A stretch of 38,506 nt of DNA from an uncultured Eubacteriales bacterium. Its GTDB lineage: Bacteria; Bacillota; Clostridia; Oscillospirales; Acutalibacteraceae. Below are positions 4,346-34,625 of the stretch, piece after piece. Where the stretch lies: assembly GCA_934476025.1 (NCBI GenBank), contig CAKSNI010000001.1, forward strand, positions 1-38,506, given 5' to 3'. The notes under the pieces are model-generated. The model worked only from the letters and a program-made list of their open reading frames with translations, was not told where the DNA came from and searched no databases. The first letter of the stretch is position 1, and each line of letters begins with the position of its first letter. The position numbers and the translations under genes are program-made.

Positions 4346-4374
4346 TTGACAAATCCGGCCGGGTGTGCTACAAT
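4346..4374 (+). promoter_or_regulatory. consensus sigma-A type promoter P1 (TTGACA-17 nt-TACAAT)
   Basis: TTGACA at 4346-4351, an exact 17-nt spacer, and TACAAT at 4369-4374. It sits directly after the gpsA stop. Confidence 0.55.
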
Positions 4375-4397
4375 ATTTTCTCGTGAGCAACGGCGTT

Positions 4398-4438
4398 CAT
4401 AAAGGCGGGGTACCGTCTTTATGGGCGTCTTAATTTTT
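4398..4438 (+). other. stem-loop (10-11 bp, GGUA loop) followed 11 nt later by a U5 run; possible attenuator or end of a short P1 transcript
   Basis: cATAAAGGCGG-ggta-CCGTCTTTATg spans 4398-4423 and TTTTT spans 4434-4438. The U-run is not adjacent to the stem, so this is not a canonical terminator. Confidence 0.3.
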
Positions 4439-4483
4439 GGGTTTCCGGCAAATTTTTCGTGGCATTTTTGTGCAGAAAAGCGG

Positions 4484-4512
4484 TGGAATTTTTTTAAAAA
4501 ATATGCTATAAT
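4484..4512 (+). promoter_or_regulatory. extended -10 promoter P2 (TGcTATAAT) with an A/T-rich upstream tract
   Basis: TGC TATAAT at 4504-4512, a weak -35 TGGAAT at 4484-4489, and an A/T run at 4488-4503. It lies about 75 nt upstream of the GS-like start. Confidence 0.45.
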
Positions 4513-4586
4513 CGTAGCCGAACCATCCGGAAAACGGGACCGCTTTCCGAAGGAGAAAACCGACCCAACCCAAACGGGAAAGAGAG

Positions 4587-5696
4587 ATGCGTATGCAGTT
4601 TTCAAAAGAAGAAGTCGCCCAATACATTGCGGAGGAAGATGTCAAGTTTATCCGGCTTGCCTTCTGCGATCTCTACGGCAACCAAAAGAACCTTTCGGTT
4701 ATGCCCTATGGGATTCCCTCCATTCTGGAACGGGGAATCACCACCGACAGTGGCCAGCTTCCCGGCTTTGTGCCGAACAGCCCGATGGTGCTGCTGCCGG
4801 ATCCCGCCACGCTGACGGTTTTGCCCTGGCGGCCGGAGCACGGCCGGGTGGTGCGGATGTTCTGCTCGCTTGCGAATGAGTCGGGAGAAATCCTGCCGGC
4901 CGATCTTCGCAGCCGCTTAAAGCAAACCGCCGAAAAGGCGGCGCAGGCCGGGTATACCTTTACCTTTGCCGTTCGCAGCAAGTTTTATCTTTACAAAACC
5001 GATGAAACCGGCGAAGCCACCCACGAACCGTACGACCGGGCCGGCTATATGGATATTGCCCCGCTGGATAAGGGGGAAAATGTGCGCCGGGAAATCTGTT
5101 TAACGCTGGAGCAAATGGGCATTCAGCCGGAAGGTTCCCATCACGAAAGCGAACCGGGGCAAAACGAAATCGATTTTGCCCCGGCCGATCCCCTCAAAGC
5201 GGCCGATGATGCCGTGACCTTCTGCTCGGTGGTCCACACCCTGGCCGCCCGCAACGGGCTGGCCGCGGATTTTTCCGGTGATTTCGGGGGCAACGCGGCC
5301 GACAACCGCGCCCAGGTGCGTTTTCGGGTAACGGATGCCGCCGGGAAAGACCGCACCGAAGAAATTTTTGCCCGGGTAGCCGGTTTTCTGCCTGAAATGG
5401 CGGTCTTTTTCTCGGCCGGGGAAAAATCCTTCCGCCGTTTGTTCTCCGAAAGCGCCGCGGCCCCGTCGGGGTTTTGTTCCAATGTCAAAGGGGAACTCAC
5501 CGCCCGGGTAAACTGCGATCCGCGCTGCAATCCCTATCTGCTGATTTTGCTGATTCTTCAGGCGGCACTCCGGCCGGAAGGCCAAAAAGCAGCCGATTTT
5601 CCGAAGGACTACGATGAAGCCTGCCGCCTTTCCGATTCCGGCCGGCTGGTTTCCGAGGTACTGGGGAATCTTTCCGGGCTGCTCGAAAGCCGGTAG
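4587..5696 (+). CDS. glutamine synthetase-like protein, shortened and with substituted active-site ligands (probably non-catalytic)
   Basis: It has a GS beta-grasp start (EEDVKFIRLAFCDLYG) and SHHESEPGQNEIDF. However, GPEPEFF is replaced by AVRSKFY, GSGMH by ADNRA, and the E-x-R near NPYL is lost. It is 369 aa against about 444 aa for type I GS. Confidence 0.8.
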   Translation: MRMQFSKEEVAQYIAEEDVKFIRLAFCDLYGNQKNLSVMPYGIPSILERGITTDSGQLPGFVPNSPMVLLPDPATLTVLPWRPEHGRVVRMFCSLANESGEILPADLRSRLKQTAEKAAQAGYTFTFAVRSKFYLYKTDETGEATHEPYDRAGYMDIAPLDKGENVRREICLTLEQMGIQPEGSHHESEPGQNEIDFAPADPLKAADDAVTFCSVVHTLAARNGLAADFSGDFGGNAADNRAQVRFRVTDAAGKDRTEEIFARVAGFLPEMAVFFSAGEKSFRRLFSESAAAPSGFCSNVKGELTARVNCDPRCNPYLLILLILQAALRPEGQKAADFPKDYDEACRLSDSGRLVSEVLGNLSGLLESR

Positions 5697-5729
5697 GCCG
5701 GCTCCAAGAAAAAGAAAAGGGGGAAATCC

Positions 5730-6317
5730 ATGGATTTAATGGATCAGAGCAAGAGCCTTTTGCTGGTTTCTTCTTCGGAAAAGTTCAATGCCTCGGTTTC
5801 GCCCCTGTTTCGCCAGACCGCCTTTTCTCCGGTTGTTACCGCCGGCGATGTGGGAAGCGCCCGGCGGATTCTGTGTGAAAAAAGTTTTGATGCCGTGGTG
5901 ATCAACTCGCCGCTTCCCGATGAATTCGGCACGCGGCTGGCCATGGATCTGTGTTCCTCTTCCTGCGGCATTCTGCTGCTTTTAAAGGCGGAACATTTTC
6001 CGGAGGTTTGCCAGAAAACCTCTCCTCTTGGAATTTTAACGGTTTCAAAGCCCACCTCCTCGGCCCTGCTGGTTCAGGCACTGTGGCTGTTGCGCGCCAC
6101 CCGGGAGCGTCTTTTGAAAATGGAACGGAAAACCGCCACCATGGAAGAAAAGATGGCCGAAATCCGCACCGTAAACCGGGCAAAATGGGTTCTCATCGAT
6201 CAAATGAAAATGACCGAACAGGAAGCCCATCGATATATTGAAAAGCAGGCGATGGATCGCTGCGTCACCAAACAGACCGTGGCGGAACAGATCCTTCTGA
6301 CTTACCGAGAATCGTAA
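5730..6317 (+). CDS. ANTAR-domain RNA-binding antiterminator with a degenerate (pseudo) receiver domain
   Basis: C-terminal ANTAR block: RAKWVLIDQMKMTEQEAHRYIEKQAMDRCVTKQTVAEQIL. The N-terminal CheY-like fold has SS in place of the acidic pair and Asn (VVINSPLPD) at the phospho-acceptor position. Confidence 0.85.
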   Translation: MDLMDQSKSLLLVSSSEKFNASVSPLFRQTAFSPVVTAGDVGSARRILCEKSFDAVVINSPLPDEFGTRLAMDLCSSSCGILLLLKAEHFPEVCQKTSPLGILTVSKPTSSALLVQALWLLRATRERLLKMERKTATMEEKMAEIRTVNRAKWVLIDQMKMTEQEAHRYIEKQAMDRCVTKQTVAEQILLTYRES

Positions 6318-6329
6318 AGGAGAATCAGG

Positions 6330-7924
6330 ATGACAAAGTATATTTTTGTAACAGGCGGCGTGGTTTCCGGTCTGGGAAAAGGCATTACGGCTGCCTCGCT
6401 CGGCCGGCTGCTCAAGTCGCGCGGGCTGAAGGTGGCTGCGCAGAAGCTCGACCCGTATATCAATGTGGACCCGGGCACCATGAGTCCCTATCAGCACGGG
6501 GAAGTGTATGTCACCGACGACGGGGCCGAAACCGATCTGGACCTCGGGCATTACGAACGGTTTATTGACGAAAATCTGAATAAATATTCCAACCTGACCA
6601 CCGGAAAGGTATATTGGAATGTATTGAACAAAGAGCGCCGCGGCGAATATCTCGGCCGCATATCACCAACGAAATCAAGGATTTCGTTTATCGGGTAGGC
6701 AAACAGACCGATGCCGATGTGGTGATCACCGAAATCGGCGGTACCATCGGGGATATTGAATCCCAACCGTTTTTGGAGGCGGTCCGTCAGATTTCTCTGG
6801 AAGTCGGCCGGGAAAACAGCCTGTTCATCCATGTAACCCTGGTTCCTTTTTTAAGCGGTTCCGACGAACACAAGTCCAAACCCACCCAGCACTCCGTGAA
6901 GGAACTGCGCGGCATGGGCATCAACCCCAACATCATCGTTCTGCGGTGTGATGAACCGCTGGAAGAATCCATTTTCAAAAAGATTTCCCTGTTTTGTAAT
7001 GTCAAACCCGATTGCGTGATCGAAAATATCACTCTGCCCTGCCTGTACGAAGCGCCGCTGATGCTGGAAAAATCCCATTTTTCCGAAATCGTCTGCCGGG
7101 AACTGGGTATCGGAGGGGTTCAGCCGGATCTCACCGAATGGACCGAAATGGTCGAACGCATCAAATCCCGTGAAAAGGAAGTTCATATCGGCCTGGTGGG
7201 AAAATATGTCCAGCTGCATGACGCCTACCTGTCGGTGGCCGAAGCCATGCGGCACGCCGGGTACACCCTGAACACCCATATCCGGATTCACTGGATTGAT
7301 TCCGAACCCCTGAACGAAGCCAATTACCAGAAATTGCTCGCCGGGCTGGACGGCATCATTGTGCCAGGCGGTTTCGGCAGCCGCGGAATCGAAGGCATGA
7401 TTCTGGCGGCCCGCTATGCCCGGGAAAACGATATTCCCTACTTCGGCATCTGCCTGGGTATGCAGATCATGGTCATTGAATACGCCCGGAATGTGGCCGG
7501 AATCCGGGGCGCCCACTCGGGAGAATTCGACGAACTGTGCAAAGACAAGGTCATCGATTTCATGCCGGGGCAAAGCGACGATATCGACAAGGGCGGCACC
7601 CTGCGTCTGGGCGCCTATCCCTGCGAAATCAAACCGGGTACGGTAATGGAGCGCTGCTATCAGGCCTCCGAAATTTCCGAACGGCATCGGCATCGGTATG
7701 AATTCAACAACGAATACCGCCAGGTGCTCACCGACGCCGGGCTGACCCTTTCGGGCCTTTCCCCCGACGGCCGGCTGGTGGAAACCGTGGAACTTTCCGA
7801 CCGGGATTTCCATGTCGGGGTTCAGTTCCATCCGGAATTCAAGTCCCGTCCCAATAAAGCGCATCCCCTGTTTCGTGGCTTTATCGCCGCCGCTTTGAAA
7901 AAAGCCTCTTTAAAAAATGATTGA
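6330..7924 (+). pseudogene. pyrG: CTP synthase interrupted by a frameshift (ORF-track pieces 6330-6698 and 6614-7924)
   Basis: [18 protein letters not shown]...ERRGEYLG runs in frame 0, then PHITNEIK...GICLGMQ...HRHRYE runs in the -1 frame. The conserved xTVQVI segment between YLG and PHIT is absent. The Gly codon 6654-6656 and Pro codon 6656-6658 share one base. Confidence 0.9.
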
Positions 7925-7931
7925 TCTTCCG

Positions 7932-7963
7932 GCCGCCGGGAATTTTCCCGGCGGCTTTCTTTT
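7932..7963 (+). terminator. rho-independent terminator downstream of pyrG
   Basis: GCCGCCGGG-aatttt-CCCGGCGGC followed by TTTCTTTT. Confidence 0.8.
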
Positions 7964-8100
7964 AAACCGGCAAACCCTGCCCCGGGAAAAGATCCGGTGT
8001 TTTTTGACTGCCGGCAACCCGAACCTCCCCGCCCGGCGCCCCCTTGCGCACCGCCGCGCAAAAGCCAAACGAAACGGTGGATAAACCGTCCGGAAACACA

Positions 8101-12855: not shown

Positions 12856-14484
12856 TCAGCGAGCCAATTTCTTTTTGGTGATAACCAGGGCAGCAGCCAG
12901 AGCCATCATCGCCAGGCCGGCAAAGAGAACTACATCAACAGCATCAGCCGTTCCGGCTTTGGCCGGGATTTCGTCAGCGCCGAGGATATAATTGGCGGTC
13001 AGATCTGCCGTGAAGATCAGCTTGCCGTTTTCGAATTTGGAATCGATCTTGACGAACTGATCGTTATCACGAGAAGTATAAACCGCAAAGTTTTCGTACT
13101 TCTTGGTCAGGTCTTCGCCCTTGTCGCCGGCGTTGGTCAGGTCGATGGTTACTTCGCCATTGTGTTCGCCTTCGAGGAGGTCTACATACAGAGAATCAAA
13201 GAAGAAACCGGCAAGATTGGCCTTGCTTTCGGTCTTGATTTCTTCTTCAGGCTGGTATTCAACGAACTGCAAATCGCCCGGCAGCACCGGATCCGCATTC
13301 TTAACAGAAATGTTATCAGCAGCCTTGACTTCTTTTTCAAGTTTGTATTCTTCCTTGAATTCTTCGTACTTGCAGCCTTCATGGATGCAATAAAGACGAA
13401 TTTTACCGTTCTTTTCAGCGGTTGCTTTTTCGACGATTTCAACAACCAAACTGTGGCCGAGAGCCGCTACTTCATCCCGTTTCTGAACATCCTGGCAACG
13501 GGAGCATTCATAGTTGGTGTAGCCAGCTTCCGTACAGGTCGGCTCAACCGTATTCTTTTTCACATAATCGTGGCCGAGTTTATTCACCTTTTTGTCGGTG
13601 GTTTCATCGCAGCGAGAGCATTTGTAAACATCCATCCCGTCTTCGGTGCAGGTCGGAGCCACGCACTGATCGTCCAGCTTCACGGTGAAGTCATGGCCGA
13701 GGGCCTTGCCCTTTTCGGTTTTGGTTGCATCGCAGCGTTTGCACTTATAATTGGTGGTGCCGGGTTCGGTGCAGGTAGCGGTCGAAGTTCCGACAATTTC
13801 CCAATCATGATCCAAAGCCGGAATGGTTTCGGAACTCAGTTTCAGGCCGCATTTTTCGCAGACAACGGCCTTTTCACCGGTGGTTTCGCAGCCGGCTTCT
13901 TTGGTGATGACTTCCTTTTTGGTGTGGTCCGCATTCTGGAGGTAGAACCCGGTGTTCAGGGCTTCTACATTCAGTTTTTTGTTTTCTTCAAAACGGCAGC
14001 CGTCCATCCAATTAAAGGTAAAGGTATATTCCCCGTCTGCTGCCGGTTTTGCAAAGTATACATCCATCAGATGGCCGGTAGCCTTTACGCCACCTTTGGT
14101 AGGATTGGCATCCAGCACGCACTGGAACCCGGTTTTCTCGGTTCCCTCCGGGCTCGTACCGACAGTCCCGCCAAGGGTAACTTCAATATCCTTGATCGCA
14201 CCTTTGATGATGCTTCTGAACCCACTATCGACTTCTTCACTATCTGCAATAGCCAACAGATTATCATCGCTCAAAATCTGAAACCGAATAACAAATAAAT
14301 CAGCATCATCGGCCAAATAGTCCACATATACCGGGACCTTCAGATATCCGTTGGCCTCCACCACTTCGCCGATACGGAATTTGACATCCACAGCGGTTTC
14401 ATCCGCATGGGCAGCCATCATCGGAACAAGCAGAGAGGCAATCATTACGACAGAAATCAAAAGAGCCAAGACTTTCTTTTTCAT
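12856..14484 (-). CDS. secreted, C-terminally membrane-anchored protein: cohesin-like N-terminal module plus five ~39-aa Cys3His repeats; no dockerin
   Basis: Signal peptide MKKKVLALLISVVMIASLLVPMMAAHA. A cohesin-like beta module (LKVPVYVDYL...FVIRFQILSDD). Repeats of the form H-x(10-12)-C-x3-G-x5-6-C-x2-C. The C-terminal hydrophobic helix is followed by KKKLAR. ATG 14484 has an AAGG RBS; the GTG at 14493 is the alternative start. Confidence 0.75.
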   Translation of the reverse strand: MKKKVLALLISVVMIASLLVPMMAAHADETAVDVKFRIGEVVEANGYLKVPVYVDYLADDADLFVIRFQILSDDNLLAIADSEEVDSGFRSIIKGAIKDIEVTLGGTVGTSPEGTEKTGFQCVLDANPTKGGVKATGHLMDVYFAKPAADGEYTFTFNWMDGCRFEENKKLNVEALNTGFYLQNADHTKKEVITKEAGCETTGEKAVVCEKCGLKLSSETIPALDHDWEIVGTSTATCTEPGTTNYKCKRCDATKTEKGKALGHDFTVKLDDQCVAPTCTEDGMDVYKCSRCDETTDKKVNKLGHDYVKKNTVEPTCTEAGYTNYECSRCQDVQKRDEVAALGHSLVVEIVEKATAEKNGKIRLYCIHEGCKYEEFKEEYKLEKEVKAADNISVKNADPVLPGDLQFVEYQPEEEIKTESKANLAGFFFDSLYVDLLEGEHNGEVTIDLTNAGDKGEDLTKKYENFAVYTSRDNDQFVKIDSKFENGKLIFTADLTANYILGADEIPAKAGTADAVDVVLFAGLAMMALAAALVITKKKLAR

Positions 14485-14555
14485 AAGATTCACCTTTTCC
14501 TTTTTACAGTTTTTTCGTTTCTAAGTTTGCCCGGCAGGGACTTCACTTTAGTTTA

Positions 14556-23522: not shown

Positions 23523-26500
23523 TCAGTGCATCCGGCACACCAGATTCAGCGAATTCACATTCTGCTCATTCAAAGCAGTCCAGTTGATTTCGCCGTATTC
23601 GCTGACATAGCTGTCCCCCGATTCCGGATGGCTTCCGTCGGTATAAACATCAATATACAGCGTCTTGGTTTCCACATCGATACGCAGCGTAAAGTCATAG
23701 GTGCTGGAAGCGTCTTCACAGCGAATCTGCAAAAATTGCGTGTCGATCCTTCCGCTGTTCTTCAGCAGGTATTCGCCCTTGCCGTTGACATCGAATTTCA
23801 CCAGCAGTTCTCCGTTGGCATTGCGAACGGCCACGCCGTCGAAGGTAGACGAAGAGGTGAGAATCTTATAGAAGTTTTCGGCCGCTTCGGCACCCATTTC
23901 GTTGTAGCGGATCTGGGTATAGTGCATATTCGAATACATATAGTTGCAGCCCTTGAAGGAAGGAACCAGGTTATAGTTGGCCCCGTTCCACTCTTCCGGT
24001 GTCTGCGGAAGGGTATTTGCAAAGCTGGCATAACTGTCGCAGGATTCCGTCAGCCAGGAAACGGTGAACAAATCGTCGCGTTTGGCGCTCAAACGATACT
24101 GCGCCCGGCGGGCCATGGTCGAAGAAGCGCTCAGAACCTTGTTCAGCGAATTCGACACCCCACGGCAGGAGCGGACGGCAATAATGGTGCCGTACTGCAG
24201 CTGCGGGCAGTCCGCCATCAGATCGTTATGCATCTTTTCGTAGTACTGCGCGTACAGCTTGTCGTTATAAATGGTGTAGCGATTCGAATCAAAATTTGTT
24301 TCGTTGCTTTCTCCCTGGTTCCAGGCATAGAAAGTCGTGGCGATTTCGTAATTCTTCGAAAGAGCCGAATAGGTTTCGTTGAAGGCGTTGACGGCGCGCT
24401 TATACAGATAATAGCCGTCCCACGTATTCCAGCCTCGATCTTCGGAATTGTATTTCAATTCCTTATAATTGCCCTGCTCGTTGGCGTCCTTTTCCCACTG
24501 AGCCAATGAGGTCGAGCCAACGCCCAATTGCAGAACCACAACCTTTTCGCCACTGAGCTCATACCAGCGGGCCGCATAGGCCGGGGCAAAGCCGCCCTGT
24601 TTGGTACGGTAATTTGTGGAATATTCAAAAGCGGGAGAAAGCGAAGTCACCGCGCCGGAGGTGGACATATACACCGCCCCGTAGGGAGCTGCCGTCGGTT
24701 CCTCGCTGAGTTGCCACTTTCCGCCCGACTGTCTGACAATGCCCATTTCTTCCGCAAATCCGGCCCCTTCGGAGTTGCTCTGCCCGATCACCAGCATAAT
24801 AGCGATCCGTTCTTTTTTGTCGGGTTCGGAGTTGATCGCATCGGTTTTGGCCTGAACATCCGCCACACTGTAGGTAACGGTATCGGTATAGCAAACCGAT
24901 CCGTCCTCCAAAATCACATATCCGCGGAAGGAAATAGACCGGGTATCCTCTTTTTCAAGGCCGCTGACATACATACTGAATACCGTTTCGCCGGTTTCCT
25001 CGTTTCGGCTCCAACAGCTGTTCAGATCGTCCCCGATTTTCGAAATGCCCATGATGCCGTTTTTGCCAACCTGGCTGAGTTCCAGCGTTCCGCGGTTTTC
25101 AGTGGATTTGAGCAGGATGCCGCGCTGGACAACCCGGTAATCGATTCCGCTGACCGTAACGGCGCCATCGGCATTTTGCTTATAGGTGTAGAATACCCGC
25201 ATTGCCTGCGACCCGGCGGTTTCGGCTGCCTCGTCGGTCAGGATGCTGACACCCGAGAAATCCAAAAAGTCATAGGTAACCTTTTCCACCGAAATGCTGC
25301 TGATTTCAAAGTAGCTGAGCGGCATATTTTTCGCGTCATATCCATCCAGACATTTGTCACAGGTGGTATAAATTCCCACAAAGGGGATCGTGCCGCTTCC
25401 GAGATCTGCCGCCGTGAACTGCCAGGTCATGGTTTGTTCTTCGGTAGCGGCTTCGGTATACATTTTCCCTTCATTTCTGGAAAGAAGCGACTTGTTGGTA
25501 ATATCCTGATAGTCGGCCTTGTCCATACCGTAGCCGATGTACAGGAACATATTCTTGTGCTGCAGCTGCGGCAGGGTATATTTTACCGTCACCCGATAGG
25601 TGGTTCCGCTGCTCAGCCGGAGCAGTTCGCCGGTTTGCTGGTCATTGAAAAGATAGCTGCCGTTCTGAACCCAGGTTTGGTTGTTGCCCATCCGCAGTTT
25701 TCCGTCTACGGCACCCATGTTGTTCCAACCGTTGTTGGCATATTCCGTGCGGATAGTATCGCCGTCCATATACCAGGTCTTGCCGGTGCGTACCTGACCT
25801 GTAAAGGCGTTGTTGACCGAAAAGGAATCGGCCGCCCGGGTAAACTTGCCGTACAGCGTCAAATCTTCCATTTTGCAATAGGCCGAAGCATAGGGAGTGG
25901 TAAGATCCCGGTCGGTATACCAACCGGCAAATACGCCGACTTCCGTATCGCTGCCATCCCACAGCAGGGAGTTCGGAGCTACATCCTGCGCCCGGAGGGT
26001 TTGTTCCCCATTCATATAGGTAACCCGGATTTTTGTATTTTCATCTATATACCGGACATACAGCGTCAGCTCACGGCCGCTGACCGTGGTGGCGGAATAG
26101 TGGTTCAAAAACAGCGGATCGGTATACCAGCCGTTGAAAATATAGCCTTGCTTGGCCGGAGCCTGCATCAGTTCGGCCCCTTCATCCGTTATTTCCTGCT
26201 TCAGCAGCGTTTCGCCGTCATAATAGGAAACCCGGACAGGACAGGTGTCGGAATATACTTCCATGCTGTCAATATAGATCACGCTCGGAGAGGTCTTGGT
26301 TTCCCCGTTTTCGGTATAGCTGACATTGGCTGCCGAGAAGAAGATCCCGAGGTAATTGTCCAGCGCAACCGTACCGGATCCGTCGGCCTTTTTATACGCG
26401 AAAACATCACTGTCCCCGTTTTTGGCCGTGGTAAACCGAAGGGTTTGTTCATAATACTGCATTCCGCTGCGAGAAATATCAAAATCGGTATAATACCGGC

Positions 26501-26756
26501 CTTTTCCGCCATTTTCGTTGTAGAAAGAACTGCCCTGCCGGTATTTCGGATACCGGGAATCGGATTCCTTAACGGCTCCGTTCTGAAAGCTGTTGCTTAC
26601 CGTAAATTTACTGGGAAAACCCGGCTGATCCGACGCATAGTTGCCGGCACCGAAAAACATCTGCGACCATCTGCCGCAGGCCTGTACCCACGCTTTCTCC
26701 TTAACGGTATAAGCGGTTTCTTCCCGGAAAACACAGGGCTTCCCGTTCTGATCCAC
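23523..26756 (-). CDS. large SASA/DUF303-type carbohydrate O-acetylesterase with two InlB-type B-repeats and beta-sandwich (CBM-like) modules; body of a gene split by an in-frame TAG
   Basis: GYIFNGWYTD and GVFAGWYTD repeats, and esterase blocks IMLVIGQSNSEG and YAWNQGESN. This piece has no signal peptide. The frame is open upstream to the TAG at 26844-26846. Confidence 0.8.
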   Translation of the reverse strand: MDQNGKPCVFREETAYTVKEKAWVQACGRWSQMFFGAGNYASDQPGFPSKFTVSNSFQNGAVKESDSRYPKYRQGSSFYNENGGKGRYYTDFDISRSGMQYYEQTLRFTTAKNGDSDVFAYKKADGSGTVALDNYLGIFFSAANVSYTENGETKTSPSVIYIDSMEVYSDTCPVRVSYYDGETLLKQEITDEGAELMQAPAKQGYIFNGWYTDPLFLNHYSATTVSGRELTLYVRYIDENTKIRVTYMNGEQTLRAQDVAPNSLLWDGSDTEVGVFAGWYTDRDLTTPYASAYCKMEDLTLYGKFTRAADSFSVNNAFTGQVRTGKTWYMDGDTIRTEYANNGWNNMGAVDGKLRMGNNQTWVQNGSYLFNDQQTGELLRLSSGTTYRVTVKYTLPQLQHKNMFLYIGYGMDKADYQDITNKSLLSRNEGKMYTEAATEEQTMTWQFTAADLGSGTIPFVGIYTTCDKCLDGYDAKNMPLSYFEISSISVEKVTYDFLDFSGVSILTDEAAETAGSQAMRVFYTYKQNADGAVTVSGIDYRVVQRGILLKSTENRGTLELSQVGKNGIMGISKIGDDLNSCWSRNEETGETVFSMYVSGLEKEDTRSISFRGYVILEDGSVCYTDTVTYSVADVQAKTDAINSEPDKKERIAIMLVIGQSNSEGAGFAEEMGIVRQSGGKWQLSEEPTAAPYGAVYMSTSGAVTSLSPAFEYSTNYRTKQGGFAPAYAARWYELSGEKVVVLQLGVGSTSLAQWEKDANEQGNYKELKYNSEDRGWNTWDGYYLYKRAVNAFNETYSALSKNYEIATTFYAWNQGESNETNFDSNRYTIYNDKLYAQYYEKMHNDLMADCPQLQYGTIIAVRSCRGVSNSLNKVLSASSTMARRAQYRLSAKRDDLFTVSWLTESCDSYASFANTLPQTPEEWNGANYNLVPSFKGCNYMYSNMHYTQIRYNEMGAEAAENFYKILTSSSTFDGVAVRNANGELLVKFDVNGKGEYLLKNSGRIDTQFLQIRCEDASSTYDFTLRIDVETKTLYIDVYTDGSHPESGDSYVSEYGEINWTALNEQNVNSLNLVCRMH

Positions 26757-27132: not shown

Positions 27133-29049
27133 TCAGCGCTGATCGGCTGCCGGCCGATGGGCCAGCATTTTGCGTAATGCGGCCAAATCCACCGCATTCA
27201 AAGAATTGTTGTGGTCAAAATCCACTCCGGCCGGAGAACGCCGCGGCGTTCCCTCTCCGAAACGCTCCGGGTCCACCCCCACCGGTGAACGCTGCGGCAG
27301 ACCGTTTAAGAAGTTCTTCAGACAAATCAGATCCAGTACATCAATCACGCCGTCGCCGTTGGCATCGCCGTTGAGATTTTCACTGAAGGTATAGGTACGC
27401 CCGGCCAAATGACCGAAGAAAAGGTAGTTGCCGTCGGCATCCGAAAAGACCGTTTCGGGGAAGCCCTGAATATCTACCCGGCCGTTGGTCGGATTTTCCG
27501 TCACCGTAAAGGTCAGATAGAACAGCACCCCGTCCTCCGAAATCGTGCCGTCTTTTTTCTCGGCGACAACGCAAATCTGCCCGGCAGTCGGACAGCCGGC
27601 GGTCAGATCATCCGCCAATCCGGCTTCCGCCTTGTCAAAAATCAGCGACTGCGGATCGTAGGAAACGGTCAGCTGCGCTGCCGAGAAGGTCGAAGCCGAT
27701 TCGATTCTCACCGGAATCCGCATGACCTCGCCGATCATCGCCGTAGCATCCGCCAATTCAATCCGGGCCGAAGAAACCGGAATCGTTTGTTTCGCCGTGC
27801 TTTCGCCGCAAACCGTGCAGAAGGTTTCCCCCTGCCCCTCGGTAGAGGCCGTCGGAGCCTTCAGCACCCGATAGGCCGTTTTCGCGTGGGGCGTTTTGGG
27901 CTGCGTTTTGGATTCCATAACCGCCGAACAGTCACGGCAGTAGGTAATTTCCGAACCTTCCCGAGAGCAGGTGGCTTCGGTAATTACCGTTTCACCCGCA
28001 TGGTGACCGGAGGCCGGAATTTCCTTGCTTTCATCATACCGGCCACAGTTCAGGCAGACATAGGCCTGCAGGCCCGGTTTGGTACAGGTGGGATATTCCA
28101 CCGTCGCCCACCCGTAAACATGACCGGTTCCCTCAAACTGCTTGGTTTCCAGCGAGGCGTGACAAATCGTGCAAAGACGGGAGGACACCCCACCGGTGGT
28201 GCAATCGGACGGAGTAGTGACCGTCCACACCCCCTTGTCATGGCCGTGGGGCGCAACCGTCCGGCGGCCGACATAGCCGCAGACCTTGCAGGTACGCGCA
28301 TCATAGCCCGGGGTGGTACAGCCGGGATCCACCTCCCGGGTATATTCGCCGTAGACATGGCCGAGCGAAGAAATTTTTTCGGTTTTCAGCACCTTTTGGC
28401 ACACCCCGCACAACAAAGACCGAACCCCTTCGTGTTCGCAGTCGGGCTGTTCGGTAATCACCCAGGCGCCCTCCACATGGTCGGCCCGGCCGGTGCCGGT
28501 GGTTTTTTCCTCTCCGCAAATCGAACATTGATAATAAATGCCGCCGGCCTGTTCACAGGTCGGATCTTTCCTGCCGACATAACGGTACCGATGCTGGCAG
28601 GACACCGTTACGGTGAATTCCCGCACGCCGAGTGAAACCGCTTTGCCCTCTTCGTTGGCTACCGCCCCGGGCGTTACCGACGGGGTAAAGGAAAAGGTAC
28701 CCGAACCGATGGGCGAGAAAGAAAGCTGCGCCAGACTTTCCCCGGTCTGATTGCCGGAAAGATGCATCAGCGCAATTTGGGCGTAACCGTCATGAACCGT
28801 ATAGTCCGTTTCAAACAACGAAGACGATACTCCGGTCAGCGCCAGTTTTTCCGTCGGGTAATTCAGCCGCAGCGAAACCACGGCGACCCCGGGATTGTTT
28901 TCCATTTTCAGGGTCACTTTAAAAGGACTTCCGGCTGTAGCCGAAACACTTTCTGCCGTTAAAACAGGGGTGGCCGCCGAGAAGGCCGGAACCGCCGCAC
29001 AGGTAAGCAGCACACACAGTACAAGCCAGACGGAAAGCAATTTTTTCAT
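27133..29049 (-). CDS. secreted cohesin-like / 7x Cys3His repeat / cohesin-like / dockerin protein
   Basis: Signal peptide MKKLLSVWLVLCVLLTCAAVPAFSA. Cohesin-like blocks (FKVTLKMENNPGVAVVSLRLNYP; VMRIPVRIESASTFSAAQLTVSYDP). Seven ~39-aa Cys repeats. Dockerin loops DANGDGVIDVLD and DFDHNNSLNAVD. ATG 29049 has an AGAGG RBS. Confidence 0.8.
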   Translation of the reverse strand: MKKLLSVWLVLCVLLTCAAVPAFSAATPVLTAESVSATAGSPFKVTLKMENNPGVAVVSLRLNYPTEKLALTGVSSSLFETDYTVHDGYAQIALMHLSGNQTGESLAQLSFSPIGSGTFSFTPSVTPGAVANEEGKAVSLGVREFTVTVSCQHRYRYVGRKDPTCEQAGGIYYQCSICGEEKTTGTGRADHVEGAWVITEQPDCEHEGVRSLLCGVCQKVLKTEKISSLGHVYGEYTREVDPGCTTPGYDARTCKVCGYVGRRTVAPHGHDKGVWTVTTPSDCTTGGVSSRLCTICHASLETKQFEGTGHVYGWATVEYPTCTKPGLQAYVCLNCGRYDESKEIPASGHHAGETVITEATCSREGSEITYCRDCSAVMESKTQPKTPHAKTAYRVLKAPTASTEGQGETFCTVCGESTAKQTIPVSSARIELADATAMIGEVMRIPVRIESASTFSAAQLTVSYDPQSLIFDKAEAGLADDLTAGCPTAGQICVVAEKKDGTISEDGVLFYLTFTVTENPTNGRVDIQGFPETVFSDADGNYLFFGHLAGRTYTFSENLNGDANGDGVIDVLDLICLKNFLNGLPQRSPVGVDPERFGEGTPRRSPAGVDFDHNNSLNAVDLAALRKMLAHRPAADQR

Positions 29050-29080
29050 AGTCGGTACCTCTTTCTTTTGATACAGACTT

Positions 29081-29109
29081 ATTTTATCATATCTTTTTTT
29101 AAAAGTCAA
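29081..29109 (-). promoter_or_regulatory. candidate promoter (TTGACT-17 nt-TAAAAT, minus strand)
   Basis: Reverse complement: TTGACT at 29109-29104 and TAAAAT at 29086-29081. Confidence 0.55.
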
Positions 29110-29110
29110 C

Positions 29111-29138
29111 AAAAAACAGACCTGCTTTTGCAGATCTG
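29111..29138 (-). terminator. rho-independent terminator after the 29204-29956 gene
   Basis: The minus strand reads CAGATCTGC-AAAA-GCAGGTCTG-TTTTTTG. Confidence 0.75.
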
Positions 29139-29203
29139 TTGGACAATTTCTACCACAAGCCAAAAGGGCTTCTCCTCCCCAAAAGGCAGGGGTGCGGCAG
29201 GGG

Positions 29204-31440: not shown

Positions 31441-34400
31441 TTAGTTTTTCGGGCCAAGAATCGTTTCGGGGATACCGGCCAGGTATTTTTTGAGAATCGC
31501 CAGGTCATCGGTATCAATATTTCCGTTGCCGTTGCAATCCGCGCCCGGATGAACTTCATCTTTGCCAACCAGACCGGCCAGCCGTTTTTTGAGCAGCGCC
31601 AGGTCGGTGGAATCGATGATGGTATCGCCGTTGACATCGCCATACGTAAAGGCGGTGACATCCAGCTCGCCGCCGACTACTTCACAATCGGTGATGCTGA
31701 CCATATCAATATCGCCGGCATCCACAAATTTCAGGGTGAACTGTTTCTTGCCGCTGACGGTGCCCGGATTGAAGTAAGCAGTTCCGACAATGCCGGAAAG
31801 CGTAACGCCTGCGCTCTTGTCAACAGAATCCAACAGGACCTGCAGCCCTTTCTGGTCGCCCTTCAGAACATCCTGAGTCAGAACGAACAGATTTTCAAAT
31901 GCCTTATCCAGTACAAAGCTGTCGGCTTCCAGGCCGTCAGCGCTGAGGATCTGGAAACGGAGGCCTGCCACATTGCCGCCTTCGCTGATATCCAGACGAA
32001 TCGGAACGGCAATCTTTCCGCCGGGTACCGGCTGATTCGGCCCGGTAACCTTCAGGGAAATGGTGGTTTTTTCGACAATTTTTACGGTAAAGGTATCGGT
32101 CAGTTTGCCGACGGTTACCGTAATGGTCTTTTCACCGGCCGAAGAAGAATCGAAGCCGGTGATGGCATCTCTGTAATCGGCCAGATCTTTGACTTCACGC
32201 GTATCGTTGTCATAGGTCAGGGTGACGCTGCCGCCGGTCAGATCCAGATCGCCGCCGATGGCATAGGCTTTCTTCTGCGGAGCCGTAACGGTAATTCCGG
32301 TCAGTTTCTTGGCACGGATGGTTACGGTGTATTCCGCGGTAAAGCCTTCGTACGATACGGTCAGCTTCTGTTCGCCCGGAAGGGTGTTGTTAAAGCCGGT
32401 CACCATTTCGTTGGTCAGTGCCACGGTGGTGGTATCGCCGTCGTTATAGGTAACGGTGAGTTCGCCGCCTTCTGTGTTCAGGGTATCTTTGCCTTCCAGA
32501 TATTCCTTCACGGTCGGTTCGGTGGTAAGTTCCACCTTGGTAATCTTTTTCTCTTCGATCGAAATATCAAAGGTTCCTTCGTAGGAGCCGTATTTCACGG
32601 TCAGAGTCTGTTTTTCGGTTGCTTTAGAAGAATCGAATCCGGAAATCATATCTTCCGTCATAGCGATTTCGTCTTGGGGATCGTCAGCATAGTTGACAAT
32701 CAGCTTTCCGCCGGTGAGATCCAGTTCCTGACCCACCACATACTGGGTTTTGGTCGGATTCGAGCCGAGGCTGATGCCGGTGATTTCCTTCACCGTAACA
32801 TCATCGAACCAGATGTTGATTTCTTTGCCTTCGGTGCCCTGGAAGTTGGTTTGCAGATTGGAAAGGAGAGAGAGGTACTTGGCGTTATCCTTCAGTTCCC
32901 CGGTGGTAATATCCACTTCGGCATAGGTCCAGTCAGGGTTGGATTCCGAAACCGTGACGGCCGAATCATTATACCGTACGAAGGTATCGGGGAACCACAT
33001 ATTGGTACCCATGGTAACCGGGGTGATGGCAACCTCACCGTCCATCTGGCCGGTTTTGTACCAGAAGCCGATGCGATAGGTCTTATTGCTTTCCACCTGT
33101 TCAATCGGCAGGGTGAAATCTTGCATGCCAACCCGGCCGTCTTCCACGGCATCCGCGCTCGTCCAGGTAAACTTCATGGATTTGCTGCCGGTTTTGGCGG
33201 TGGTGTTATCCAGCGTATACTTCGGGCAGAAGAAGAACTTTGTCGAGTCCAGGGTGCATCCGCCGTCGCCGTCGAACATCGGGTAAGCGTAATTTTCAAA
33301 GGAAGTTCCTTTTTTCCATTTGGCGTAATAGGTGCCGCCCTGTTCAATGCCTTCGGCTTTGGTTGTCAATTCAGGGTCGGTATACAGGCCTTCCAGATCA
33401 TAGCCAACACGGTAAACCGGCAGATTGCCGATTTCGCTGGCCCGAATCGATACTCTCTGTGGTGCATCGGTTCCGGCAAAGGGAACCTTTTTCACGGTAG
33501 AACCGCCGTTCGGGTAAAGCGTAAAGGAAACATACTGGCCAAGGTACTGAACCGCAACCGATTTTACCAATACTTTGCTGTACTCGGCAAATTCGCCATT
33601 TTCATCCAGTTTGGCCCCGCCACAATAGGTGAAAACACCAATCACCGGTTCCGCACCGTTCAGATCAATGGCATCCACCGTGCAGGTATAGGTCTGATCG
33701 GTAGCATAGGTGGTTCCACCCGCGATATTCTTGGAACTGGCTTTCACAAAGTTATTTCCGGCCGGGTCCAATATCTCCCCGGCATTGCGTTTCACGCCAA
33801 CCCCGGCGCTTACCATAACGCCGCTGAAATTTTCCGGAACCTGATAAACAACCGAGATTTTGTACCGGCCGTTTTCACGAACACGAACCACCGCGCCATC
33901 ATCGTCTTTCAGCAGCAAAACCCCGGAAGCCGCCCAGGTGCTGGTTTTTTCGGCATTGCGGCCGTTGGACAGGAAGAGCGCGCCGTTTTCGTCAGTGCCC
34001 TGATAGCTCCACCCGTTGCTGTATGCAGCTGAGAAGTACGCATCCGCATCCCCATAGGCGTAGGGAGCAAGCCCGCCGGTCAGCTGCGTGCCGGAGCGGG
34101 TGAGAGAATCCGCCACACCGATATCCTGATATTTGGCATACAAATCGGCATTGTCAGTAAAGGTCAGGCTGCCGTTGTTGCCCCAGTACAGATTTTTGCA
34201 TCCCGGATCGCTGAACCAACCGACAAAATACTTACCTTCCGGTACTACTTCCGGCATCGGCGGAACAGCCGATTTCACCTGTTTGGTGGTAGCGTTGCTT
34301 TCGCCGTAATGCAGGGTAAGAACCGGCACATTATCTTCGGCGGTAATGGCATACTTCTTTCCCAGTGTGGGCTGCCAGCTGTTTTCGCCTTCGGCCGATA

Positions 34401-34470
34401 CCGACATCGGTACGATCATCGCCGTCAAAACGAGAGCAACCGCCAGCACAATGCTTAACAGTTTTTTCAT
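31441..34470 (-). CDS. 1009-aa secreted multi-module protein: B-repeats, CBM-like beta-sandwiches, 3x Big_3-like Ig repeats, cohesin-like module, type I dockerin
   Basis: Signal peptide MKKLLSIVLAVALVLTAMIVPMSVSA. B-repeats GKYFVGWFSDP and VGYDLEGLYTDP. Three ~80-aa repeats (G-x-LDLTGG-x-L...ITGFDSS...TLTV). Cohesin-like KIAVPIRLDISEGGNVAGLRFQILS. Dockerin DVNGDTIIDSTD / DCNGNGNIDTDD. GGAG RBS before ATG 34470. Confidence 0.85.
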   Translation of the reverse strand: MKKLLSIVLAVALVLTAMIVPMSVSAEGENSWQPTLGKKYAITAEDNVPVLTLHYGESNATTKQVKSAVPPMPEVVPEGKYFVGWFSDPGCKNLYWGNNGSLTFTDNADLYAKYQDIGVADSLTRSGTQLTGGLAPYAYGDADAYFSAAYSNGWSYQGTDENGALFLSNGRNAEKTSTWAASGVLLLKDDDGAVVRVRENGRYKISVVYQVPENFSGVMVSAGVGVKRNAGEILDPAGNNFVKASSKNIAGGTTYATDQTYTCTVDAIDLNGAEPVIGVFTYCGGAKLDENGEFAEYSKVLVKSVAVQYLGQYVSFTLYPNGGSTVKKVPFAGTDAPQRVSIRASEIGNLPVYRVGYDLEGLYTDPELTTKAEGIEQGGTYYAKWKKGTSFENYAYPMFDGDGGCTLDSTKFFFCPKYTLDNTTAKTGSKSMKFTWTSADAVEDGRVGMQDFTLPIEQVESNKTYRIGFWYKTGQMDGEVAITPVTMGTNMWFPDTFVRYNDSAVTVSESNPDWTYAEVDITTGELKDNAKYLSLLSNLQTNFQGTEGKEINIWFDDVTVKEITGISLGSNPTKTQYVVGQELDLTGGKLIVNYADDPQDEIAMTEDMISGFDSSKATEKQTLTVKYGSYEGTFDISIEEKKITKVELTTEPTVKEYLEGKDTLNTEGGELTVTYNDGDTTTVALTNEMVTGFNNTLPGEQKLTVSYEGFTAEYTVTIRAKKLTGITVTAPQKKAYAIGGDLDLTGGSVTLTYDNDTREVKDLADYRDAITGFDSSSAGEKTITVTVGKLTDTFTVKIVEKTTISLKVTGPNQPVPGGKIAVPIRLDISEGGNVAGLRFQILSADGLEADSFVLDKAFENLFVLTQDVLKGDQKGLQVLLDSVDKSAGVTLSGIVGTAYFNPGTVSGKKQFTLKFVDAGDIDMVSITDCEVVGGELDVTAFTYGDVNGDTIIDSTDLALLKKRLAGLVGKDEVHPGADCNGNGNIDTDDLAILKKYLAGIPETILGPKN

Positions 34471-34501
34471 GTTTGAAGATCTCCTTTCAAGATTTACCTT
34501 T

Positions 34502-34530
34502 AGTTTAGCACACGATTGTACAAAAATCAA
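34502..34530 (-). promoter_or_regulatory. candidate promoter (TTGATT-17 nt-TAAACT, minus strand) for the 1009-aa gene
   Basis: Reverse complement: TTGATT at 34530-34525 and TAAACT at 34507-34502. The spacer contains a TTGTACAA palindrome. Confidence 0.5.
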
Positions 34531-34625
34531 TAGAAAATTAACGATCATATACAAATTTTATTTCGTTTTTCACAAAGAAATTCTATTTTGTACAAATTCC
34601 CGGCATAGTTTTTGGCGATTTTATC

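Follow-up and report, generated by a model that had tools for sequence, protein, structure and literature searches.

What does a glutamine synthetase (GS) do in an operon once its catalytic residues are gone? This question is raised by a locus in a 38,506-nucleotide stretch of DNA from an uncultured Eubacteriales bacterium of the Acutalibacteraceae (contig CAKSNI010000001.1 of assembly GCA_934476025.1; the whole stretch is called the window here). In this locus, a gene for a degenerate GS-like protein is followed by a gene for an ANTAR protein without a phospho-acceptor and by pyrG, which encodes CTP synthase (Table 1). A preliminary description had read the first two genes as a sensor-regulator pair and took glutamine or ammonium to be the signal. 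It placed both open reading frames (ORFs) and the 33-nt gap between them correctly, as the ORF list and the sequence showed. The locus as a whole appears to be best explained as a nitrogen-responsive attenuation operon of the clostridial glnA-nitR type, made up of a promoter, a leader terminator, the GS-like gene, the ANTAR gene and pyrG. Within this operon, we propose, with a probability of about 0.45, that the GS-like protein is a pseudoenzyme retained to serve a NitR-type antiterminator as its sensor partner, probably for 2-oxoglutarate (2-OG).

The results of profile searches indicated that the 369-aa ORF is a derivative of type I GS, as had been described, and that it belongs to type I-alpha. 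Pfam found Gln-synt_N, and Gln-synt_C was matched only over profile positions 3-137 of 344. The GlnA equivalog model TIGR00653 gave 147.6 bits (cut-off 429.15) and was covered only at model positions 1-249. The protein was then aligned to solved GS structures, to Bacillus subtilis GlnA and to 199 family members (MAFFT, in one alignment). Residues are numbered from Met1 of B. subtilis GlnA. Six metal ligands were scored, namely E134, E189 and E196 for n1 and E132, H245 and E333 for n2. Four of the six are lost in the GS-like protein (E132R, E134K, H245 and E333), and E189 and E196 are kept. GPEPEF has become AVRSKF, with R and K in place of both Glu. Meanwhile, NGSGMH has become AADNRA(Q), so that the His is gone and its position holds A or Q, depending on the alignment. 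Both motif changes had been seen by eye, and they were confirmed against B. subtilis GlnA and the 199 members. In addition, the NRSxLIRIP block containing R316 and R321 is deleted, and R335 is also lost. The E-x-R ahead of NPYL is intact in no alignment. Thus, the earlier view that this block is broken holds, but the exact change of Glu to Ala appears only in the alignment that runs ungapped from NPYL (E to A, R to V), and MAFFT put a different Glu there. The HHE and NEIDF motifs survive. Because four metal ligands and three catalytic Arg are gone, the protein cannot work as a GS. The degenerate state that had been proposed therefore stands after ligand scoring, and on these alignments the protein is certainly catalytically dead.

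Nevertheless, the predicted fold is that of a GS. The AlphaFold2 (AF2) model has a mean predicted local distance difference test score (pLDDT) of 86 and a predicted TM-score (pTM) of 0.89, and it keeps the beta-grasp N-domain and the catalytic domain. In a Foldseek search, its query-normalised TM-scores to GS I-alpha structures were 0.83-0.89, with the value for Methanosarcina mazei GS reaching 0.89. Two lineage-specific deletions, both in frame, were found in the C-terminal part. Scrambling of this part by frameshifts was considered and rejected: tblastn with four intact homologs gave a single in-frame high-scoring segment pair covering homolog residues 1-329, with nothing significant in other frames.

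To which family does this protein belong? A search of 5.8 billion proteins returned one 99% cluster and then, at about 50% identity, thousands of proteins with a length near 402 aa. These relatives are compact GS of type I-alpha with intact ligand motifs (GSEMEFYLF, SHHEEGPGQNEIDF, GNGMH, NRSQLIRIP and AELRSPD), and their nearest solved relatives are the GS of M. mazei and of the Bacillus group. At 369 aa, the GS-like protein falls 33 residues short of the length usual in its family. The description of about 75 missing C-terminal residues is therefore right against Bacillus (444 versus 369 aa) but not as a trait of this lineage, since about 42 of them are absent family-wide and about 33 are specific to the lineage. 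Three further features of the family were observed. Across the family, a conserved Lys (G-x-x-KAP) replaces the flap Glu, which lies in PGYEAP in B. subtilis and M. mazei; the corresponding residues of the window protein are ~286-292. The family is without the last ~30-40 residues and without the glutamine-feedback Arg. One homolog of 384 aa (P0063) is family-like to about residue 290 and unrelated after it, probably through a frameshift in the gene or a misassembly of its contig.

Ligand loss in this family is not confined to the window. Besides the window protein, about 10 of the 199 compact GS are ligand-deficient, and each of them has lost one to three ligands (Table 1). Some of the single changes may be errors. 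Two of these copies, in loci L064 and L067, come from different species and form a clade: they share 73% identity, and no intact member exceeds 62% identity to either. The damaged state has therefore outlasted speciation in this pair, with the ANTAR gene retained. The recurrent loss suggests that the family has a role independent of catalysis, and the window copy is the most extreme instance of such loss.

We next consider whether the dead ORF is maintained. The 90% cluster held 11 distinct variants of the GS-like protein from independent human-gut metagenomes, and ten of the loci were fetched; their DNA is more than 99% identical. All 11 alleles are open, with 367-369 aa and no stop or frameshift. 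The gene as a whole carries 5 non-synonymous (N) and 7 synonymous (S) polymorphisms (pN/pS, the ratio of their rates, 0.23; P = 0.012 against neutrality), and codons 1-230 carry 0N:2S. For the neighbouring gpsA, the corresponding numbers were 1N:7S. Furthermore, when a position conserved in at least 95% of the family was counted as family-conserved, residues 1-230 retained 87 of 97 such positions, and the ten losses included both catalytic Glu. Residues 231-369 retained 12 of 42. In a fit of GS identity against the identity of the ANTAR protein from the same genome, the GS-like protein had a residual of -17.8 identity points with a standard deviation of 2.8 (an outlier by more than 6 standard deviations), and it has thus diverged far beyond its own ANTAR partner. 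In simulations of neutral point substitution up to the observed divergence, the C-terminal part stayed free of stops in 1-2.5% of runs, indels not being counted. These results are good evidence rather than proof that residues 1-230 behave as a constrained protein and the C-terminal part as a relaxed but still translated tail. The dead ORF is apparently kept by selection.

The downstream protein was confirmed as an ANTAR protein by Pfam (PF03861, 57.9 bits, cut-off 27.3), with a receiver below threshold (21.2 bits against 30.2). Rv1626, AmiR, EutV and NasR were among its sequence matches, and Rv1626, EutV and AmiR among its Foldseek matches. The preliminary description had seen a Ser-Ser pair in place of the acidic pair and Asn at the phospho-Asp site. 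HMMER alignments to Rv1626 and TorR agree with this, with Asn59 on the phospho-Asp and S-S on the acidic pair. As judged from these residues, the protein certainly has no phospho-acceptor and is not phosphorylatable. Asn occupies the phospho-Asp site in 120 of 121 ANTAR homologs, with S-[A/S] at the acidic pair. The pseudo-receiver is thus a trait of the whole family, normally found beside a ligand-intact GS, and what is peculiar to the window is the state of its GS.

The two genes are firmly linked. We sampled 80 species-level genomes, in which 75 loci had enough downstream sequence, and the ANTAR gene lay directly 3' of the GS gene, on the same strand and about 30-250 nt away, in all 75. An independent sample of 120 metagenome loci (L097-L216), found through the leader motif described below, gave the same picture: among the matches listed, compact GS was directly 5' of ANTAR in 29 of 29 ANTAR-bearing loci. 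Compact GS and ANTAR are therefore an obligate gene pair. The usual order in relatives is GS, then a 194-aa ANTAR protein, and often then pyrG. Genes for glutamate synthase (GOGAT) or for type III GS (GSIII) sometimes lie upstream; for example, GOGAT genes are linked to the locus in L001, and a GSIII gene adjoins it in L004. In addition, three contigs with the Clostridia-type GS-ANTAR locus (L027, L040 and L089) are filed under metagenome-assembled genomes of Alloprevotella, Bacteroidaceae and Treponema, which is probably binning contamination. No kinase gene was found in the neighbourhood of the locus. Since the ANTAR protein is not phosphorylatable and no kinase gene is near, its activity must be set by a protein partner, and the invariant upstream compact GS is most likely that partner.

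Which signal could such a partner report? In M. mazei GlnA1, 2-OG is bound in an inter-subunit pocket formed by F24, R26, R87, R172, R173 and S189, with the small residue A40, and an equivalent pocket is known in Methanothermococcus thermolithotrophicus GS (PMC11957540, PMC10799026). The residues of this pocket are fully kept in the GS-like protein (F21, R23, S37, R82, R167, R168 and S184), and the positions are 99-100% conserved among the 199 compact GS members. In B. subtilis GS, which is insensitive to 2-OG, three of these positions differ. Meanwhile, the glutamine-feedback Arg (R66 in M. mazei, R62 in B. subtilis) is replaced by Gly or Asp across the family, and the GS-like protein has a deletion at this site. 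Because the pocket residues are kept, while the feedback Arg and the catalytic pocket for glutamate and glutamine are gone, the signal is probably 2-OG, and the earlier suggestion of glutamine or ammonium is less likely.

The leader of the operon offers a candidate target for the ANTAR protein. A near-consensus promoter is followed by a conserved 17-mer and an intrinsic terminator (Table 1); the same arrangement of TTGACA and TGnTAtAAT also precedes the conserved leader in distant genomes. The 17-mer forms a small hairpin whose hexaloop, AACGGC (4389-4394), begins with A and carries G in fourth place. Both this loop and the hairpin's 3' arm serve as the 5' arm of the terminator. Because of this shared arm, the small hairpin and the terminator are mutually exclusive. 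ANTAR target RNAs have been described as hexaloop hairpins, with A1 and G4 of the loop required, in two tandem copies called P1 and P2 (Ramesh et al. 2012; PMC3369931). The window hairpin fits the rule for A1 and G4 and the overlap with the terminator's 5' arm. It lies about 10 nt past the -10 box, at the very start of the transcript, so that a P1 would not fit ahead of it. The adjacent ANTAR protein would be expected to bind this candidate hairpin.

Comparison with relatives showed this element to be conserved. The consensus of the 17-mer is TGAGCAAAGGCGTTCAT, located about 10 nt 3' of the -10 box, and it was found at 46 places in the fetched loci. Only four versions of the small hairpin's 5' arm occur, namely GAGC, GAAC, GGGC and GGAC (A or G opposite U), and each of them can pair with GTTC. 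The overlapping terminator was the fold of minimum free energy (MFE) in about 30 of 33 unique leaders, and the upper-stem sequences of these terminators are unrelated. The exact consensus occurred in at least 120 metagenome stretches, and 116 of them had enough downstream sequence. Among these matches listed, the leader was followed by GOGAT in 49 cases, by compact GS in 25 and by pyrG in 18. A further 23 of the 116 listed copies had none of the three genes within 1.6 kb downstream; several of them precede unidentified ORFs (for instance L109, L190 and L207), which may be further members of the regulon. Moreover, in six loci (L019 5881, L031 7146, L053 6011, L055 6030, L078 5842 and L079 6030) a separate copy of the leader precedes pyrG, in the variant TGAACAAAG[G/A]CGTTCA with a perfect GAAC/GTTC stem. 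Since pyrG owns a leader copy in these genomes, CTP synthase is a member of the attenuation regulon that includes GS and GOGAT. In the Rfam search, no family was found in the window at gathering thresholds, and none matched the leader even at E <= 10. A loose search of the window with a 14-mer (3 mismatches) gave 10 matches against 8.1 expected, of which only the exact copy at 4387 matters.

Some other features were seen downstream of the leader terminator, ahead of the GS-like gene. The evidence for a second promoter there is weak (Table 1); in L004, TGGTATAAT lies about 60-70 nt ahead of GS, at a place similar to that of TGCTATAAT in the window. The interval 4440-4586 also contains a hairpin (CGGAAAACGGGACCGCTTTCCG) and a strong Shine-Dalgarno (SD)-like GAAGGAG (~4550) with no start codon after it.

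The three genes of the operon are tightly packed. The 33-nt spacer between the GS-like gene and the ANTAR gene contains the SD-like AAGGGGGA, and the 12-nt spacer between the ANTAR gene and pyrG contains the SD-like AGGAG. The preliminary description had the position of pyrG right; in the window, the reading frame of this gene is broken by a frameshift. The 19 bp absent at 6655-6656 are CTCCACCGTTCAGGTGATT, and they are present in strain L006. The gene is intact, with 537 aa, in L012 and L014/L015, and in L010 it is called with 531 aa up to the contig end. L012 is identical to the window over gpsA, the GS-like gene and ANTAR, and its pyrG is intact; therefore, the lesion is a defect of the strain or of the assembly, or else the gene was inactivated very recently.

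Table 1. Features of the locus in the window and ligand losses in compact GS of other genomes (B. subtilis GlnA numbering)
Feature	Source	Coordinates	Strand	Remarks
Sigma-70-type promoter	window	4346..4374	+	TTGACA-17-TACAAT with TG, 11/12 matches; near consensus
Conserved 17-mer, candidate ANTAR-binding antiterminator	window	4384..4400	+	TGAGCAACGGCGTTCAT; 4-bp hairpin GAGC (4385-4388)/GTTC (4395-4398)
Intrinsic terminator of leader	window	4392..4439	+	17-bp stem 4392-4429, then T-rich TTAATTTTTG; 5' arm GGCGTTCAT...; MFE -27.3 kcal/mol
Possible second promoter	window	4504..4512	+	extended -10 TGCTATAAT; between terminator and GS-like gene
GS-like ORF	window	4587..5696	+	369 aa (367 aa if start is Met3); residues 1-230 conserved, 231-369 degenerate
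ANTAR ORF with pseudo-receiver	window	5730..6317	+	195 aa; S14-S15 at acidic pair, N59 at phospho-Asp site; coiled-coil helix joins receiver and three-helix ANTAR domain
pyrG (CTP synthase), last gene of operon	window	6330..7924	+	19-bp deletion after 6655, giving ORFs 6330-6698 and 6614-7924
Strong intrinsic terminator closing operon	window	7931..7966	+	11-bp stem, 9 GC pairs, T-rich tail
Ligand-deficient full-length GS	L064	4001-5200		as L067: E134Q, E333Q, R321 lost; GNGMH to GSALH; IRIP to ISIR/VFSY; pseudo-receiver ANTAR downstream
Ligand-deficient full-length GS	L067	1933-3108		as L064
E132 losses	P0002, L037, L036			E132K (P0002, L037); E132A (L036)
E134 loss	P0018			E134K
E189/E196 losses	P0108, L059, L095, L074			E189K (P0108, L059); E189A (L095); E189V + E196K (L074)

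Based on the features above, the operon could work as follows. By default, transcription from the operon promoter would halt at the leader terminator. The GS-like oligomer would report nitrogen status, probably through its occupancy by 2-OG, and its state would decide whether the ANTAR dimer is held or released. A free ANTAR dimer would then stabilise the hexaloop hairpin at the 5' end of the nascent RNA and so block the overlapping terminator, and read-through would reach the GS-like gene, the ANTAR gene and the glutamine-consuming pyrG. We infer four elements of this scheme: the contact between GS and ANTAR, the binding of 2-OG, the binding of ANTAR to the hairpin, and the direction of the switch.

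Much of the sensor-regulator reading made before thus gains support, namely from the dead GS, the absence of a phospho-acceptor, the obligate synteny, the candidate leader target and the selection on the ORF. It does not hold as a peculiarity of this locus, because the pseudo-receiver is family-wide. Any such pair would be a property of the whole family, and in the window lineage only the non-catalytic part of the GS is left, comprising the beta-grasp domain, the N-terminal half of the catalytic domain and the inter-subunit 2-OG pocket. In a more general form, compact clostridial GS I-alpha would be a sensor that reads 2-OG through the archaeal-type pocket and holds or releases a NitR-type ANTAR protein, which acts on the single-hexaloop leaders of GOGAT, GS and pyrG, and the window species would be a natural separation of functions, having given up catalysis and kept the sensor. 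We offer this general form tentatively, as a model that is rather more likely to fail than to hold.

Several points weigh against the proposal of a retained sensor. First, the degenerate form of GS is known from one species only, and its next relative is 53% identical. Second, codons 231-369 carry 5N:5S with a pN/pS of 0.34, which is not significantly below 1 (P = 0.085) and means fast evolution; all five amino-acid polymorphisms fall in these C-terminal 139 residues, as decay would predict, and the polymorphism counts are small. Third, the AF2 confidence in the C-terminal part may stem from an alignment made of intact homologs, and the conservation of the 2-OG residues could merely be a structural constraint on the fold. 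Fourth, the contact between GS and ANTAR is proposed from gene adjacency and the pseudo-receiver. Fifth, the dual-hexaloop motif brought up in the preliminary description was absent: a scan for dual A..G.. hexaloop hairpins with a T-run found none in the window, and the operon leader holds a single conserved hairpin, whereas characterised ANTAR targets have two. Finally, pyrG, the sole remaining cargo gene, is broken in the window assembly.

The first two of these points would be expected if the gene were a decaying relic. GS function would have been lost, for example because GSIII or glutamate dehydrogenase elsewhere assimilates ammonium, and the gene would be heading for deletion; the ANTAR protein would be under another GS, PII or a small molecule, or would be constitutive. 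The few conserved positions and the two lineage-specific deletions of the C-terminal part fit such decay, and the GSIII gene beside the locus in L004 means that other GS types occur in the group. However, a relic is hard to reconcile with 11 alleles free of stops and frameshifts, with deletions that are all in frame and leave no hidden frames, and with residues 1-230, which retain 90% of the conserved positions at 0N:2S. In addition, drift rarely left the frame open in the simulations, and the L064/L067 clade consists of ligand-deficient copies that persisted across speciation. We therefore regard decay as unlikely, though it is the strongest of the alternatives.

It is still less probable that the protein acts independently of ANTAR, either by modulating another GS or joining it as a non-catalytic subunit, through co-assembly or titration by its N-terminal half, or in a new ligand-binding or enzymatic role. 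The conserved part does comprise the beta-grasp and the inter-subunit pocket residues, which form the oligomer interfaces of GS, the model keeps the GS fold, and the oligomer state of GS is regulatory in M. mazei (PMC11957540, PMC10651883). Nevertheless, no second type I GS gene was found in the window or in the ~20 kb known around the locus, and the degenerate part showed no newly conserved motif. Furthermore, the absolute linkage to a pseudo-receiver ANTAR protein would be left unexplained.

Least probable of all is that the ORF stays open only in cis, with translation avoiding polarity or coupling the expression of ANTAR and pyrG and the protein itself irrelevant: the tight packing, the single shared promoter and leader, the single terminator and the open yet degenerate C-terminal part would suit this, but it does not account for the amino-acid conservation of residues 1-230 (87 of 97 positions and every 2-OG pocket residue), and the ANTAR gene has an SD sequence of its own.

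A dead GS under apparent selection beside a pseudo-receiver ANTAR protein is the sort of natural experiment that can tell regulation by GS apart from its enzyme activity. That ligands were lost repeatedly and independently, with ANTAR always retained, points to a regulatory role too. In addition, the leader defines a compact regulon of GOGAT, GS and pyrG that occurs widely among gut and rumen Clostridia. The finding gains interest if the general model of a 2-OG sensor holds. If the proposal is wrong, the locus is a decaying glnA beside a regulator of known type.

Elsewhere in the window, on the minus strand, we observed genes for a protein with cohesin and dockerin (27133-29163), a protein with Big_3 and dockerin (31441-34554) and a SASA-esterase protein (23523-26756). 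The host looks like a cellulosome-type fibre degrader, Ruminococcus-like, of human gut samples such as Hadza. A 544-aa ORF at 12856-14493 (minus strand), between nrdD and the dockerin genes, had no Pfam match at E <= 1e-5.

Several parts of this picture are already known, namely the linkage of glnA and ANTAR (NitR), the sequestration of pseudo-receiver ANTAR proteins and the role of GS as a regulator. In our literature search, we found no description of a GS-derived pseudoenzyme in a glnA-ANTAR pair, and none of a family-wide pseudo-receiver with an archaeal-type 2-OG pocket or of a single-hairpin leader regulon. The synteny of glnA and ANTAR in clostridia, which the preliminary description had cited as established, is borne out by the glnA-nitR cluster of Clostridium saccharobutylicum, where NitR is an ANTAR antiterminator and a type I GS gene adjoins, and by its equivalent in Clostridium thermocellum, Clo1313_2030 (ANTAR), Clo1313_2031 (type I-alpha GS) and GOGAT (PMC6316151, PMC4676874, PMC9888227). 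According to a review, the mechanism by which NitR senses nitrogen is 'not fully understood' (PMC6316151). These clusters resemble the window in gene arrangement, with a type I GS beside an ANTAR gene. They also resemble the window's family in the link to GOGAT (seen in relative L001) and in the presumed antitermination on leaders of nitrogen assimilation. Unlike them, the window has a dead and shortened GS, GOGAT lies outside the locus, and pyrG is the sole cargo gene.

In the AmiC-AmiR and NasS-NasT systems, a ligand-binding partner sequesters a pseudo-receiver ANTAR protein (PMC3369936, PMC3795266). The window shares with them the non-phosphorylatable receiver-like domain, a putative sensor gene adjoining in the operon, and a leader terminator with a hexaloop hairpin. 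It differs in that the candidate partner is a GS-fold protein that probably assembles into a large oligomer, whereas AmiC and NasS have the periplasmic-binding-protein fold; in the window the contact with the partner is deduced, and the leader has one hexaloop hairpin, not two.

The GS of B. subtilis is a 'trigger enzyme' that controls TnrA and GlnR (PMC6316151). As proposed here, a type I-alpha GS signals nitrogen status to a regulator by protein contact in that system, and the GS-TnrA and GS-GlnR-peptide structures were among the structure matches of the GS-like protein. However, the Bacillus GS is an active enzyme, its signal is glutamine feedback through R62, which is absent in the window, and its regulators are DNA-binding proteins of the MerR type, not RNA-binding ANTAR proteins.

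The closest likeness in sequence and structure is to the archaeal enzymes. M. mazei GlnA1 and M. thermolithotrophicus GS were the best matches in both respects and have the 2-OG pocket residues in common with the GS-like protein, and the glutamine-feedback Arg is missing in M. thermolithotrophicus GS as well (PMC10799026, PMC11957540). The compact family differs from the archaeal GS in having Lys for the flap Glu and in lacking the last ~30-40 residues. Furthermore, the archaeal GS are active, and 2-OG turns their catalysis on, whereas the window protein has no catalysis to switch.

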